Of a stretch of 8,062 nucleotides of DNA, positions 1,830 to 8,062 are shown piece by piece. The notes beneath the pieces were generated by a model. It saw only the letters and a program-made list of their open reading frames with translations, did not search any database and had not been told where the DNA came from. Origin of the DNA: a virus (taxonomy: Duplodnaviria; Heunggongvirae; Uroviricota; Caudoviricetes); IMG/VR virus record IMGVR_UViG_2802429244_000020. One strand, given 5' to 3'. Both the position numbers and the translations under genes were made by a program. The stretch's first letter is position 1, and every line of letters begins with the position of its first letter.

Positions 1830-2000
1830 ATGAATGAGCCTCGTTGTATTGCTCAGTTATTGCGTAACGAAAGCCCCAGGGCGATTGACTTCAACATCAC
1901 CCACGGTAAGGGGCGTAAGGGAATCATTATCCGCACCAAAAAACAGAGTCCGTTAAAAAAGGTTCTGACCTTTCTGAAAAGCCGGAGGGTATGGAAATGA
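1830..2000 (+). CDS. Small basic hypothetical protein (56 aa) between cox and B, P2 orf78-like position
   Basis: The ORF track starts at a TTG at 1803; the first ATG with a Shine-Dalgarno (GGAG 1820-1823, 6-nt spacer) is at 1830. Lys/Arg-rich. Stop TGA 1998-2000 overlaps the B start codon. Confidence 0.6.
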   Translation: MNEPRCIAQLLRNESPRAIDFNITHGKGRKGIIIRTKKQSPLKKVLTFLKSRRVWK

Positions 2001-2497
2001 CAGTGATGACGCTCAATCTCGTTGAAAAACAGCCAACAACTATGCGCCGGATAATTGGTAAGCATCTGGCCGTCCCTCGCTGGCAGGAGACATGCGATTA
2101 TTATAATCAGATGATGGAACGCGAACGGTTAACGGTTTGCTTCCATGCGCAGTTAAAACAACGTCACGCAACGATGCGTTTTGAAGAAATGAACGACGTC
2201 GAACGTGAACGGCTGGTTTGTGCAATTGATGAACTGCGCGGGGCATTCTCAAAACGCCGTCAGGTCGGTGCAAGTGAGTATGCATATATTAGTTTTTTAA
2301 CAGTCAGTCAGCGTCGTACTTTATTTATGCATGCGGGATTGACAGAAAAAGAATTCAATCAGCCGTACTGGCGCATTAATGAAGAATCATGTTACTGGCG
2401 TGATGCTTTATTCCGTGCATTACGTGAATTATTCAGCCTGTTTGAGTATGCACCGACAATTCTGACGTCGGTAAAACCAGAGCAATATCTGCATTAA
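1997..2497 (+). CDS. B: Replication protein B (P2 B-like, 166 aa from the ATG at 1997)
   Basis: ORF after cox in conserved P2 order. Three in-frame ATGs (1991, 1997, 2006); 1997 has the best spacing (8 nt) from GGAGG at 1984-1988 and gives 166 aa, the size I recall for P2 B. ATGA overlap with the upstream stop. Confidence 0.8.
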   Translation: MTVMTLNLVEKQPTTMRRIIGKHLAVPRWQETCDYYNQMMERERLTVCFHAQLKQRHATMRFEEMNDVERERLVCAIDELRGAFSKRRQVGASEYAYISFLTVSQRRTLFMHAGLTEKEFNQPYWRINEESCYWRDALFRALRELFSLFEYAPTILTSVKPEQYLH

Positions 2498-3311: not shown

Positions 3312-3586
3312 GTATTCGTATCGAAATTGGCGAACGTTATGTCGTTACCAGTGACAGCTTTCAGTTTATTCTCCACGAGAAAAAGAGAGCGGAAAGCGGT
3401 AAAAACGCCGGTCAGGAATGGCTGGCGGTGGTTGGTTATTACCCGAAATTAAGCCAGCTCGTTTCCGGCCTGATGCATCACGATATTCTGACCGGAAGCG
3501 CAAAGTCTTTTGCTGATTTAAACGCGCAGGTTGAGCAACTCAGCAAGCGTTGTTCAGAGGCGTTCTCCAGAGGAGCGTCTGAATGA
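3308..3586 (+). CDS. Hypothetical early-operon protein (92 aa)
   Basis: ATG 3308 overlaps the upstream stop (ATGA). GGAG at 3298-3301 with a 6-nt spacer. No recognisable motif. Confidence 0.65.
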   Translation: MSIRIEIGERYVVTSDSFQFILHEKKRAESGKNAGQEWLAVVGYYPKLSQLVSGLMHHDILTGSAKSFADLNAQVEQLSKRCSEAFSRGASE

Positions 3587-4590
3587 TTACTGATGCTCGT
3601 TGCCATACTGAAAATACCATCAATGTTATTTTTGTTTCAGGTGGAAAGGACAGCCTTGCTCAGTGGCTTGTCGCTATTGAAGAAAATGTACCCATATTGC
3701 CGGTTTTTGCTGATACGGGACATGAACATCCACAGACAATGAAATATCTGGATTATCTGGAAAAACGGCTTGGCCCAATTAAAAGGGTCAGGGCTGATTT
3801 TTCCTGCCGGATTGAATCAAAGCGCAAGTTTATCCAGACCAAATGGCCTGATTTGTTGGTTAACGATTGTGGAATGTCGGAAGAAGAAGCGCACCAGCGC
3901 ATCAGTTGTGCGCTGGAAATTCTCAAACCAACGGGTATCCCGTTTCTTGATTTGTGTCTGTGGAAGGGGCGTTTCCCATCAACCAAAGCCAGATTTTGCA
4001 CATTTGAACTGAAACATGAGCCCGTGCGTTCTCAGGTAATATTGCCTTTACTCAATGAATTTGAGGAAGTGATTAGCTGGCAGGGAGTGCGTGCTCAGGA
4101 ATCGCCATCACGCGCTGCTTTACCTGTCTGGGAAGAGGATGCAGACAACACCCCCGGATTGCATGTATATCGCCCGATTTTGCACTGGAAGCATGAAGAT
4201 GTATTTGCAATAGCCAGAAGACATGACATTAAGCCAAATCCGTTATATCAGCAGGGGTGTGGCCGTGTTGGTTGTATGCCATGTATTCATGTCCGTAAAT
4301 CTGAACTGGCAGAAATTTTTCGCCGGTGGCCGGAGGAAATAAAACGGGTTGCTGAATGGGAACGACTGGTTGCGTCGTGCTCCCGTCGGGGAAATTCCAC
4401 TTTTTTCCCATCCACACATGATCCGCTACGCGCAGAACGTCGTATTGAGATTGTAACAGTCGAGGCATACGGAATAGAAACCTACCATGACTGGACAATG
4501 ACAACGCGTGGGGGTACTCAGTTTGATTTACTGGCTTCGGCGAATGATAAAGCCGTTTGCAGTAGTGTCTATGCCGGTGTATGTGAATGA
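3583..4590 (+). CDS. PAPS-reductase-like PP-loop ATP-pyrophosphatase family protein (335 aa)
   Basis: N-terminal FVSGGKDS matches the SGGxDS PP-loop motif of the PAPS reductase / adenine-nucleotide alpha-hydrolase superfamily. Cys-rich C-terminal segment QQGCGRVGCMPC. AGGAG at 3571-3575 (7-nt spacer); ATGA overlap at both ends. Confidence 0.8.
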   Translation: MITDARCHTENTINVIFVSGGKDSLAQWLVAIEENVPILPVFADTGHEHPQTMKYLDYLEKRLGPIKRVRADFSCRIESKRKFIQTKWPDLLVNDCGMSEEEAHQRISCALEILKPTGIPFLDLCLWKGRFPSTKARFCTFELKHEPVRSQVILPLLNEFEEVISWQGVRAQESPSRAALPVWEEDADNTPGLHVYRPILHWKHEDVFAIARRHDIKPNPLYQQGCGRVGCMPCIHVRKSELAEIFRRWPEEIKRVAEWERLVASCSRRGNSTFFPSTHDPLRAERRIEIVTVEAYGIETYHDWTMTTRGGTQFDLLASANDKAVCSSVYAGVCE

Positions 4591-6872
4591 GTCATTCTTT
4601 CCAGGAGCAATACACCTGCGTACCTCCGTCTGCGTTTGCCGCAGGCACCGGTAAGGCGTTTACCGGTGCTTATGCATGGAACGCGCCACGCGAGGCTGTC
4701 GGGCGCGAAAGACCCCTTACACGTGACGAGATGCGTCAGGTGCAAAGTGTTTTATCCACGATTAACCGCCTGCCTTACTTTTTGCGCTCGCTGTTTACTT
4801 CACGCTATGACTACATCCGGCGCAATAAAAGCCCGGTGCACGGGTTTTATTTCCTCACATCCACTTTTCAGCGTCGTTTATGGCCGCGCATTGAGCGTGT
4901 GAATCAGCGCCATGAAATGAACACTGACGCGTCGTTGCTGTTTCTGGCAGAGCGTGACCATTATGCGCGTTTGCCTGGAATGAATGACAAGGAGCTGAAA
5001 AAGTTTGCCGCCCGTATCTCATCACAGCTTTTCATGATGTATGAGGAACTCTGCGATGCCTGGGTGGATGCGCATGGCGAGAAAGAATCGCTGTTTACGG
5101 ATGAGGCGCAGGCTCACCTGTATGGTCATGTTGCTGGCGCTGCACGAGCTTTCAATATTTCCCCTCTCTACTGGAAAAAATACCGTAAAGGGCAGATAAC
5201 CACGAGGCAGGCATATTCTGCCATTGCCCGTCTGTTTAACGATGAGTGGTGGACTCATCAGCTTAAAGGCCAGCGTATGCGCTGGCATGAGGCGTTACTG
5301 ATTGCTGTCGGGGAGGTGAATAAAGACCGTTCTCCTTATGCCAGTAAACATGCCATTCGTGATGTACGTGCACGCCGCCAGGCAAATCTGGAATTTCTTA
5401 AATCGTGTGACCTTGAAAACAGGGAAACCGGCGAGCGCATCGACCTTATCAGTAAGGTGATGGGCAGTATTTCTAATCCTGAAATTCGCCGGATGGAGCT
5501 GATGAACACCATTGCCGGTATTGAGCGTTACGCCGCCGCAGAGGGTGATGTGGGGATGTTTATCACGCTGACCGCGCCGTCAAAGTATCACCCGACACGT
5601 CAGGTCAGAAAAGGCGAAAGTAAAACCGTTCAGCTTAATCACGGCTGGAACGATGAGGCATTTAATCCAAAGGATGCGCAGCGTTATCTCTGCCGCATCT
5701 GGAGCCTGATGCGCACGGCATTCAAGGATAATGATTTACAGGTCTACGGTTTGCGTGTCGTCGAGCCACACCACGACGGAACGCCGCACTGGCATATGAT
5801 GCTTTTTTGTAATCCGCGCCAGCGTAACCAGATTATCGAAATCATGCGTCGCTATGCGCTCAAAGAGGATGGCGACGAAAGAGGAGCCGCGCGAAACCGT
5901 TTTCAGGCAAAACACCTTAATCGGGGCGGTGCTGCGGGGTATATCGCGAAATACATCTCAAAAAACATCGACGGCTATGCACTGGATGGTCAGCTCGATA
6001 ACGATACCGGCAGACCTCTGAAAGATACTGCCGCGGCTGTTACTGCATGGGCGTCAACGTGGCGCATCCCGCAATTTAAAACGGTTGGTCTGCCGACAAT
6101 GGGGGCTTACCGTGAACTACGCAAATTGCCGCGCGGCGTCAGCATTGCTGATGAGTTTGACGAGCGCGTCGAGGCTGCACGCGCCGCCGCAGACAGTGGT
6201 GATTTTGCGTTGTATATCAGCGCGCAGGGTGGGGCAAATGTCCCGCGCGATTGTCAGACTGTCAGGGTCGCCCGTAGCCCGTCGGATGACGTTAACGAGT
6301 ACGAGGAAGAGGTCGAGAGAGTGGTCGGCATTTACGCGCCGCATCTCGGCGCGCGTCATATTCATATCACCAGAACGACGGACTGGCGCATTGTGCCGAA
6401 AGTTCCGGTCGTTGAGCCTTTGACTTTAAAAAGCGGCATCGCCGCGCCTCGGAGTCCTGTCAATAACTGTGGAAAGCCTGCCAGCAGTGATGCTTCGTTA
6501 CCGGCTCCCACACCTTCTGAACACGCCGCAGCAGTGCTTAATCTGGTAGATGACGGTGTTATCGAATGGAATGACCCGGAGGTTGTGAGGGCGCTCAGGG
6601 GGGCATTAAAACACGGCCTGAGAAGACCAAATCGCCAGCAAAGAAACGGAAGCCCGTTAAAACCACATGAAATAGCGCCATCGGCCAGACTGACCCGGTC
6701 GGAACGAATGCAAATTACCCGTATCCGCGTTGACCTTGCTCAGAACGGTATCAGGCCTCAGCGATGGGAGCTTGAGGCGCTGGCGCGTGGCGCGACTGTA
6801 AATTATGACGGGAAAAAATTCGCTTATCCGGTCGCTGATGGATGGCCAGGGTTCACAACTGTAATAGATTGA
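4587..6872 (+). CDS. A: Rolling-circle replication initiator endonuclease A (P2 gpA-like, 761 aa)
   Basis: 761-aa ORF at the conserved position. HUH-type motif HWH (nt 5787-5795, within GTPHWHMMLF) and two tyrosines four residues apart in YIAKYISK (Tyr codons 5940-5942 and 5952-5954), the hallmark of P2 A-type nicking initiators. Confidence 0.95.
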   Translation: MSHSFQEQYTCVPPSAFAAGTGKAFTGAYAWNAPREAVGRERPLTRDEMRQVQSVLSTINRLPYFLRSLFTSRYDYIRRNKSPVHGFYFLTSTFQRRLWPRIERVNQRHEMNTDASLLFLAERDHYARLPGMNDKELKKFAARISSQLFMMYEELCDAWVDAHGEKESLFTDEAQAHLYGHVAGAARAFNISPLYWKKYRKGQITTRQAYSAIARLFNDEWWTHQLKGQRMRWHEALLIAVGEVNKDRSPYASKHAIRDVRARRQANLEFLKSCDLENRETGERIDLISKVMGSISNPEIRRMELMNTIAGIERYAAAEGDVGMFITLTAPSKYHPTRQVRKGESKTVQLNHGWNDEAFNPKDAQRYLCRIWSLMRTAFKDNDLQVYGLRVVEPHHDGTPHWHMMLFCNPRQRNQIIEIMRRYALKEDGDERGAARNRFQAKHLNRGGAAGYIAKYISKNIDGYALDGQLDNDTGRPLKDTAAAVTAWASTWRIPQFKTVGLPTMGAYRELRKLPRGVSIADEFDERVEAARAAADSGDFALYISAQGGANVPRDCQTVRVARSPSDDVNEYEEEVERVVGIYAPHLGARHIHITRTTDWRIVPKVPVVEPLTLKSGIAAPRSPVNNCGKPASSDASLPAPTPSEHAAAVLNLVDDGVIEWNDPEVVRALRGALKHGLRRPNRQQRNGSPLKPHEIAPSARLTRSERMQITRIRVDLAQNGIRPQRWELEALARGATVNYDGKKFAYPVADGWPGFTTVID

Positions 6873-6978
6873 AATAGTGTGAATATCTAAGAGATAAAAC
6901 TATATAAGGTGTGTATTAATACTGTGCTGGAGGAAAAGGTGAAAACCAGATGGCATGGCTACAATAATAAAACGATAA

Positions 6979-7007
6979 GCCTCATTTTTAATGAGGCCGT
7001 TTTTATT
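6979..7007. terminator. Bidirectional intrinsic terminator candidate between A and the leftward cargo genes
   Basis: 8-bp perfect inverted repeat GCCTCATT / AATGAGGC (6979-6986 and 6990-6997) with a 3-nt loop, followed on plus by CGTTTTTATT and preceded by AATAATAAAACGATAA (a T-rich tract on the minus strand). It lies 107 nt after the A stop and about 40 nt after the stop of the leftward 223-aa gene. Confidence 0.6.
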
Positions 7008-7037
7008 ACATCAAAAGAATTGAATTGTATTGTTAAC

Positions 7038-7709
7038 TTAAAGGGCAAACCTTTCTATGGTTCGATACACCTTGTCAAAAATTTGCTCTGAAAGTGAAAT
7101 GGACCCATTTGTGTTAATTTCTAATGACTCATAACCGGTCACATCCTTAACATTAAGTTTAACTTTATCAATTGTAAAATTTGCATTTTTGAAAATGTTT
7201 CTTATTTCCATAAGTGCGTCACTTGATGACTCAAGTTCCAGTATGCCGGATGTGTGCTTGCTAAACGTTAAGTCTTTTAATTTTGCTTTGTGCACTTGTA
7301 TTTTTTCAAAGTGCGGGGTCAGGAAATAAATGAAGTCCTCAATTTTGATGTTGAGATTTGACACATTAAAATCAGAATGTGTTGATTTAATTATGTTTGA
7401 TATGAAGTTTTTAATGCTTCTGGGAGGCGACTCAATGATTAAGATGAAGTTTTTACCTTTTGTTGTGTAAAGCCAAAAGTTAAATTGAATATATTTTAGC
7501 TGTGTATATTGAGTCTCGTTTCCATATGGATCAACGATTATCTCGTTGACCTCTACTTTCTCGATGTATCGAGATGATATTGCATTTTCTTCATATGAGT
7601 TGATACTAAATCCCCAGCCTTTATCACTATCAAAAGGAGTGTTAATGATAGACTGATATAAACTATCAAGTCCAGCAGGGAAGTTGGCAGTAAACCATTT
7701 TGTTTTCAT
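7038..7709 (-). CDS. Hypothetical AT-rich cargo protein (223 aa), distal gene of a leftward operon in the post-A variable locus
   Basis: Complete minus-strand ORF. ATG at 7709..7707 is preceded by AAGGAG (plus 7715-7720, 5-nt spacer). Only 11 nt separate it from the upstream gene's stop. No Cys, no long hydrophobic segment, rich in N/I/K/F/S. No motif I can recognise. Confidence 0.75.
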   Translation of the reverse strand: MKTKWFTANFPAGLDSLYQSIINTPFDSDKGWGFSINSYEENAISSRYIEKVEVNEIIVDPYGNETQYTQLKYIQFNFWLYTTKGKNFILIIESPPRSIKNFISNIIKSTHSDFNVSNLNIKIEDFIYFLTPHFEKIQVHKAKLKDLTFSKHTSGILELESSSDALMEIRNIFKNANFTIDKVKLNVKDVTGYESLEINTNGSISLSEQIFDKVYRTIERFAL

Positions 7710-7720
7710 AACAACTCCTT

Positions 7721-8062
7721 TTATTTATCAGTAACAACCTCAATTGTGTTTGAGGCGATAATACTGTTTGAAATTTCGCGAGCGGTTTTTTCAAGTGCTA
7801 ATAATAGCAGTTTTTCCTTCTCTTTATCTACATTTTGACGATTTGCATATTCGTTTATATTTTTGTACTTATAAACACCGCGAACGATATACGAGAATAA
7901 CTTGCAATTATCTGGGTCGACAAATTGAGCCTCGAATTCATATTTGTCCGAGTCTTTATAAGTGTCAACAACAGAACTCCAAATGATTTTGGTAATATAA
8001 AATCCTTTTCCTAACAACTCTTTAAACTCGAGAGAGTCAAGAACGCTGCGCCCTTTTAGTGA
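7721..8062 (-). CDS. 3' end (last 113 codons) of a larger leftward cargo gene; 5' part lies beyond the window
   Basis: The minus-strand reading frame is open from the window edge (8062) to the TAA at 7723..7721. The track's start at 8017 is a TTG, and translation continues upstream without a stop (…SLKGRSVLDSLEFKELLGKGFYITK…). Same low G+C as the downstream gene. Confidence 0.7.
   Translation of the reverse strand, partial: SLKGRSVLDSLEFKELLGKGFYITKIIWSSVVDTYKDSDKYEFEAQFVDPDNCKLFSYIVRGVYKYKNINEYANRQNVDKEKEKLLLLALEKTAREISNSIIASNTIEVVTDK

Follow-up and report, generated by a model that had tools for sequence, protein, structure and literature searches.

The truncated gene at the edge of a P2-like prophage stretch is almost certainly hp2 of the 3HP defence system, whose product is best read as a remote relative of GAPS4b

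Which gene runs off the end of an 8,062-nucleotide (nt) stretch of viral DNA (IMG/VR record IMGVR_UViG_2802429244_000020, Caudoviricetes; the whole stretch is hereafter called the window), and what might its product do? An earlier note, made from the letters alone, had described the minus-strand frame at its edge as the visible tail of a cargo gene linked to a downstream open reading frame (ORF) of 223 amino acids (aa), and had wondered whether a DPD tripeptide in it belongs to the TOPRIM domain of an OLD-family or GajA nuclease. We report that the truncated gene is almost certainly hp2, the middle gene of the hp1-hp2-hp3 system (3HP; Rst_3HP in DefenseFinder), located between the P2 replication gene A (gpA) and the portal gene Q. 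Profile comparisons suggest that this system is related to GAPS4, which carries a nuclease.

Translation of the minus strand at positions 7721-8062 gave 113 stop-free codons followed by a TAA, and the frame runs unbroken to the edge of the window, as the note had claimed. The ORF listing gave only a 98-aa version of it, from an internal TTG start, because that listing omits ORFs running off the edge. The open frame is a real gene. The window fragment corresponds to residues 258-370 of the 370-aa E. coli protein WP_001398851.1 with 100% identity and zero mismatches, and in 9 near-identical E. coli genomes the frame continues into an annotated 370-aa coding sequence (CDS); the expectation that the gene is larger than its visible part was thus borne out. 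Bases 6873-8062 (1190 nt) were found at 99.2-99.5% identity in 9 of the 5,426 complete E. coli genomes, on the chromosome in every case. Full hp1 and hp2 were taken from E. coli strain 1409 (locus L001, 99.5% identical). The features of the operon within the window are as follows.

Positions 7721-8062, minus strand: 3' end of hp2 (residues 258-370, with the TAA stop at 7721-7723), identified by translation, identity to WP_001398851.1, PADLOC Hp2 and PHROG 6531.
Positions 8051-8062, minus strand: codons S258-L-K-G261, with which the most conserved motif of Hp2 ends (columns invariant in 61 homologues).
Positions 7910-7918, minus strand: DPD codons (D306-P307-D308), a predicted beta-hairpin turn and not a catalytic DxD (column counts, DSSP of the model, DSE in the validated Hp2).
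Positions 7710-7720, minus strand: hp2-hp3 junction of 11 nt, AAGGAGTTGTT (direct reading of the sequence).
Positions 7715-7720, minus strand: Shine-Dalgarno (SD) sequence AAGGAG within that junction (direct reading of the sequence).
Positions 7038-7709, minus strand: hp3, 223 aa, the third gene of the operon (PADLOC Hp3, E 5.1e-8; PHROG 5850, E 1.4e-86; 19% identity to the validated Hp3, E 1e-10).

When the three full cargo proteins were compared with PADLOC-DB, the only matches were Hp1 (E 2.2e-63), Hp2 (E 3.6e-37) and Hp3 (E 5.1e-8). The alignment of full-length Hp2 with its PADLOC model (PDLC03005) placed residues 4-363 on profile positions 4-353 of 359, and the window fragment alone matched positions 250-353 with E 1.6e-10. 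The proposal that the truncated gene is cargo of a defence locus therefore agrees with the 3HP system models. Hp2 also matched PHROG 6531 (E 3e-156), and in PHROGs all three cargo proteins fall in families of unknown function. WP_001398851 itself appears in Table S5A of Rousset et al., among the P2-hotspot loci labelled 'hypothetical + hypothetical + hypothetical'.

Of the 8 phages in the panel of Rousset et al. (2022, Cell Host Microbe; PMC9122126), P1 was the only one against which the validated 3HP system ('hp + hp + hp', plasmid pFR109, from E. coli E1114) gave protection. By BLASTP, the present Hp1, Hp2 and Hp3 were 35% (E 1e-67), 31% (E 2e-39) and 19% (E 1e-10) identical to the pFR109 proteins, and all three alignments were collinear, which makes the present operon a divergent lineage of the known system. 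The two share gene order, the P2 gpA-gpQ hotspot and similar protein sizes (354/370/223 aa here vs. 333/359/227 aa in E1114); they differ in sequence to the extent just given, and activity, against P1, was shown only for E1114. No clear predicted domain was reported in the three 3HP genes (PMC9122126), and our Pfam and NCBIfam searches with the three cargo proteins returned sub-threshold noise only, with a Pfam set that seemingly lacked PF26115. No mechanistic study of 3HP was found in the literature searched.

A search with the 113-aa window fragment alone returned only 2 matches. The 90%-identity cluster that holds the present Hp2 has 346 members, and its representative, P0003, is C-terminally truncated (325 aa); most of the fragment lies beyond this end, which is why the search was nearly empty. 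A copy of hp3/hp2 with 75% DNA identity is present in another E. coli genome (NZ_CP018206.1, 3539267-3540142) and represents an intermediate 3HP lineage.

The junction between hp2 and hp3 was read correctly in the earlier note: within the 11-nt gap AAGGAG stands directly after the hp2 stop and 5 nt ahead of the ATG of the 223-aa ORF. This stop-SD-ATG arrangement joins the two genes in an operon. It shows co-transcription of hp2 and hp3 and permits coupled translation, but hp3 could be translated independently of coupling because it has a strong SD of its own. In L001, hp1 and hp2 overlap by ATGA and the 11-nt gap separates hp2 from hp3; in relatives, the annotated CDS coordinates give a 4-nt overlap of hp2 and hp3. 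Across Hp3 and the Hp2 fragment, the sole amino-acid difference between the window and L001 is at Hp3 residue 216 (R216 in the window, L216 in L001).

GAPS4 is a two-gene system composed of GAPS4a and GAPS4b (Mahata et al., 2024, 2025; bioRxiv 10.1101/2023.03.28.534373 and 10.1101/2025.09.07.674715). GAPS4a, the nuclease, is of the PD-(D/E)xK type and has the motif HGxD-SxK, the two subunits assemble as a 2:2 heterotetramer in which GAPS4b makes up a ring, and the DNase activity is triggered by DNA breaks; neither gene protects alone, and the range of phages affected is broad (Mahata et al.). In the literature searched, the two systems are never named in the same paper, and 3HP goes unmentioned in the GAPS4 preprint. 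For our comparisons, GAPS4a and GAPS4b sequences were taken from the AlphaFold3 files in the supplement of that preprint.

Hp1 (354 aa) is encoded beyond the window, upstream of hp2, on the same strand as hp2 and hp3; of the two partners of hp2 only hp3 lies within the window. In precomputed annotations, Hp1 homologues carry Pfam PF26115 (PDDEXK_GAPS4). Residues H50-P51-x-D53 and D72-L73-K74 are invariant in 51 diverse Hp1 homologues, and hhalign comparison of the Hp1 profile with GAPS4a-RiKo gave a probability of 93% (E 2.9e-7, 206 columns). In this alignment the Hp1 H-x-x-D corresponds to the HGxD of GAPS4a, with Hp1 D53 on GAPS4a D49, a residue whose D-to-A substitution inactivates GAPS4-RiKo (Mahata et al.). 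A PDB sequence search with Hp1 gave noise only. By these sequence features Hp1 belongs to the GAPS4a family of PD-(D/E)xK nucleases and has kept its active site intact, which is a new assignment, and the gene adjoining hp2 encodes the kind of partner that GAPS4b has, a GAPS4a-family nuclease. The two nucleases differ in that Hp1 has a canonical D-x-K whereas GAPS4a has S-x-K, and Hp1 is ~45 aa longer.

Hp2 was compared with GAPS4b by aligning a profile of 200 Hp2 relatives with a profile of 6 GAPS4b sequences. The local alignment scored 38.7 (P 1.8e-4) over 249 columns starting from residue 1, and the global alignment scored 31.9 (P 5e-6) over 336 collinear columns; the HH probability was 49-70%. 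With 100 column-shuffled GAPS4b alignments the local scores averaged 14.6 (standard deviation 2.3, maximum 26.1) and the global scores 2.1 (standard deviation 1.6, maximum 9.0); the Hp2-GAPS4b scores thus exceeded the shuffles by ~10 (local) and ~18 (global) standard deviations. A reversed GAPS4b alignment and Hp1-family controls stayed at noise level. Landmarks common to both families are an N-terminal L-x-x-[KS]-R-G, an R-x-x-[FY]-[FL]-x-x-L helix and an L/V-K-G segment, the last of which corresponds in GAPS4b to the invariant Hp2 motif H253-G261. The proteins are also of similar size (370 aa for Hp2 vs. 379-385 aa for GAPS4b), and each is encoded directly downstream of a nuclease gene. The similarity is visible only profile vs. 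profile: a single GAPS4b sequence gave no match with a narrower Hp2 profile, and a hidden Markov model search reached 1.8 bits. Close GAPS4b loci numbered 3 in a genome contig scan and 2 in a plasmid search, and because so few were found the GAPS4b profile is shallow (Neff 1.9). We conclude that Hp2 is best read as a remote homologue of GAPS4b, a link that is new.

The number of genes sets 3HP apart from GAPS4, which has two genes (or a fused one). Loci of the 3HP type were examined in E. coli, Vibrio, Alteromonas, a TARA metagenome contig, a Citrobacter IncFIB plasmid and a Pseudomonas megaplasmid, and all of them have a third gene, 215-236 aa long, downstream of that for the Hp2 homologue. 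The three-gene order persists at Hp1 identities of 26-30%, and the Hp3 proteins of related loci align with one another. In contrast, the GAPS4 locus of an Ewingella plasmid consists of two genes followed by an unrelated convergent gene. When Hp3 was compared with Hp2, GAPS4b, Hp1 and RdgC by hhalign, the scores were at noise level, and a PDB sequence search with Hp3 found no relative. Because the third gene is retained, the mechanisms of 3HP and GAPS4 may differ in trigger or control.

Several observations concern the mobile elements on which such loci are found. Hp2 relatives (24-33% identity) occur in records of non-P2 phage or satellite size, namely OR621024.1 and OR621021.1 (Pseudomonas, 13 kb), MK416011.1 (Klebsiella) and PQ189388.1 (Vibrio), which indicates that 3HP travels on several kinds of mobile element, beyond P2 hotspots. 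Tyrosine integrases adjoin the 3HP-type operons in two Vibrio loci (L002 and L003), in the Alteromonas locus (L004) and on the Pseudomonas plasmid (L007). The Alteromonas operon also lies beside nuclease-like genes (Mrr_cat, NYN), a neighbourhood that resembles a defence island.

The architecture of Hp2 was examined with an AlphaFold2 model built from 60 sequences for the homologue P0004, which is 80% identical to the present Hp2 and whose numbering is shifted by +3 relative to it. The mean predicted local distance difference test (pLDDT) value was 81.8 and the predicted template modelling (pTM) score 0.72. In the model a four-helix domain at the N-terminus is followed by alpha+beta domains, which a disordered, acidic stretch (residues 229-250) links to a C-terminal alpha+beta domain; this last domain, the portion visible in the window, has a first helix, three long antiparallel strands and a second helix of 26 residues. 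The most conserved segment of Hp2 is H253-I-S-K-A-S-L-K-G261, of which only the last four residues lie inside the window, and no recognisable catalytic motif was seen in the protein. The family is uniform in size: 617 clusters at 50% identity (E <= 1e-3), all of ~340-420 aa, match end to end. A Foldseek search of the PDB with Hp2 gave no match at E <= 1e-3. The modelled fold nevertheless offers a structural lead to RdgC (PDB 2owl, 2owy), a toroidal dimer that encircles DNA (PMC1885664, PMC2965237). This predicted likeness is one of fold only and does not amount to family membership; Hp2 would differ from RdgC in having an extra N-terminal helical domain and the acidic linker, and hhalign comparisons of Hp2 and of GAPS4b with RdgC gave noise-level scores, with no sequence-profile similarity.

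We then weighed other explanations for the locus. If Hp2 were an OLD- or GajA-like nuclease, it should combine an N-terminal ABC-type ATPase with a C-terminal TOPRIM domain in which DPD acts as the DxD. The position of the gene would suit this, since canonical phage P2 carries old in the identical gpA-gpQ slot and P2 Old, like 3HP, is anti-phage cargo (PMC9122126). The protein has only 370 aa, however, and its full length, now recovered, has neither an ATPase nor a TOPRIM architecture, and it differs from P2 Old and GajA in fold and size. The Walker A motif [AG]xxxxGK[ST] occurs in none of 61 sequences, which comprise full-length Hp2 plus 60 homologues with identities as low as 35%. Hp2 matched none of the ATPase, TOPRIM, OLD or GajA models of Pfam, NCBIfam or PADLOC, AAA or ABC domains were not detected by Pfam at E <= 1 or by PADLOC at E <= 0.01, and a PDB sequence search with the Hp2 family profile returned zero matches. 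The tripeptide itself is present in FVDPDNCKL, but D306 lies 64 residues from the C-terminal residue and not about 75 as had been stated. Both of its outer positions are mostly acidic across the 61 homologues (D306 is D in 49/61; D308 is D in 36/61 and E in 22/61), and P307 is P in 24/61. The invariant residues E299, E301, F304 and F313 flank it on the strands, whereas DPD is variable and predicted to form the turn between antiparallel strands (300-309 and 314-324 in P0004 numbering by DSSP, pLDDT > 90); it aligns with DSE in the validated Hp2 and with a longer loop in GAPS4b. The pairing of a conserved Glu with an invariant DxD that marks a C-terminal TOPRIM domain was thus not found, and the probability that Hp2 is an OLD/GajA-like nuclease is negligible.

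The structural lead to RdgC raises another alternative, in which Hp2 alone would be an RdgC-like toroidal DNA binder. It might counteract RecA or the recombinases of the phage, for instance, and so block recombination or replication of the incoming phage DNA. Here the null results of Foldseek and of the RdgC profile comparison count against it, as do the constant tight linkage of hp2 to hp3 and to the gene for a nuclease whose active site is invariant, and the finding that in the related GAPS4 neither gene is protective alone; we consider it very improbable. Slightly better placed, although still unlikely, is the view that the three genes are prophage cargo without a defence role, or a decayed and inactive copy, and that the 3HP match reflects shared ancestry only. 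The 19-35% identity to the validated system would fit this, with activity shown only for E1114, and so would the partition systems and toxins that P2 hotspots also hold (PMC9122126). However, the 9 genomes carry the three ORFs intact and with almost no variation, the catalytic residues of Hp1 are retained, and the family is widespread: it occurs next to integrases, on plasmids and in phages, which is typical of defence cargo.

Taking these results together, we regard as likely the explanation in which the truncated gene is the 3HP Hp2 in a P2-like cargo slot and acts as the counterpart of GAPS4b within a nuclease complex. Five points weigh against it. The Hp2-GAPS4b link is remote (14% identity, HH probability of 49-70%), and the single-sequence tests were negative. 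Every 3HP relative examined keeps the third gene, whereas GAPS4 works with two. The protection by validated 3HP was confined to P1 in the panel used, and that by GAPS4 is broad. The RdgC resemblance was reproduced neither by Foldseek (E <= 1e-3) nor by profile comparison. Finally, the present variant is very divergent from that of E1114, the sole 3HP system tested.

Because Hp1 resembles GAPS4a and Hp2 is collinear with GAPS4b, 3HP would probably be a GAPS4-like nuclease complex with Hp3 as an extra subunit; judged as a mechanism, by analogy, this part of the explanation stands at an even balance. Hp2, as the GAPS4b counterpart, would have no catalytic role; it would serve as scaffold or sensor, probably in the form of a dimeric ring in contact with DNA, and would hold the Hp1 nuclease and control it. 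Infection would yield free DNA ends or breaks, and these, sensed as in GAPS4, would be the most plausible trigger. The triggered complex would then degrade DNA, with abortive infection as the outcome. Hp3, which has no GAPS4 counterpart, would be an added subunit, perhaps a regulator or a specificity factor. By analogy with the systems already studied, we infer that the present variant acts in anti-phage defence. A more specific version has somewhat less than an even chance of being right: 3HP would be a three-subunit branch of GAPS4, in which two Hp2 molecules form a ring like that of GAPS4b or RdgC. This ring would be threaded by free DNA ends or would clamp them, and would license Hp1, with Hp3 as the gate. 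Such gating by Hp3 might restrain autoimmunity arising from chromosomal breaks, or might narrow the trigger to phages such as P1.

The gpA-gpQ region of P2-like phages is a defence hotspot (Rousset et al., 2022; PMC9122126), and two further features of the window relate to this setting.

Positions 4587-6872, plus strand: P2 replication gene A (gpA), which bounds the P2 defence hotspot on the left (Pfam Phage_GPA, E 6e-123).
Positions 6978-6998, not assigned to one strand: hairpin GCCTCATTTTTAATGAGGC resembling a bidirectional terminator, with T-runs on each strand, where gpA and hp3 converge (terminator scan).

In L001 the region is a P2-like prophage whose insertion adjoins pflA. Its genes run from integrase, HTH repressor, Cox and small early genes to the replication endonuclease gpA and the three cargo genes; these are annotated as minus-strand 'hypothetical protein' genes (354, 370 and 223 aa) and are followed by portal, terminase, scaffold and capsid genes. 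The left arm of the window matches L001 and encodes Int, an HTH_3 repressor, Phage_Cox, DUF2732, DUF5405, a TraR/DksA zinc finger, DUF5405, a PAPS-reductase-domain protein and Phage_GPA. The cargo thus lies in the hotspot described for 3HP, with gpA on its left in the window and the portal gene after the cargo in L001; the gpA-gpQ position is that in which 3HP was first described and is not obligatory. The terminator scan found four sites in the region vs. 0.5 expected from shuffles, and the hairpin at 6978-6998 marks the operon end. The G+C content is ~0.34 in the hp3/hp2 cargo (6601-8062) vs. 0.50-0.58 in gpA (4201-6600), a drop that would fit a recent gain of the cargo from a source of low G+C.

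In the early region, the window and L001 differ. The PAPS-reductase-domain protein (335 aa; PF01507, E 5e-35; positions 3583-4590, plus strand) is encoded in the early operon, where its gene overlaps the preceding DUF5405 gene and the gpA start by 4 nt each. L001 lacks this gene, and DUF5405 there leads directly into gpA. The early operon may therefore hold a second cargo slot, for instance for DNA modification or anti-defence. A 168-aa early-region ORF (1991-2497, plus strand) had no Pfam match, and the equivalent position in L001 holds a 166-aa 'hypothetical protein'.

As a feature of a genome, the locus is ordinary: it is a divergent copy of a catalogued defence system at an expected site. 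The analysis removes a wrong lead, as the truncated gene is not an OLD/TOPRIM nuclease, and it provides 3HP, a system without recognised domains, with a testable model, that of a DNA-break-sensing abortive DNase with an extra subunit. These data suggest that (i) two separately named systems, 3HP and GAPS4, form one family, which bears on the classification of defence systems; and (ii) the link matters for predicting side effects, such as quinolone sensitisation. If true, the three-subunit reading would reveal how an accessory subunit tunes a DNase that senses breaks, and would give 3HP a testable mechanism that is absent from the literature searched.
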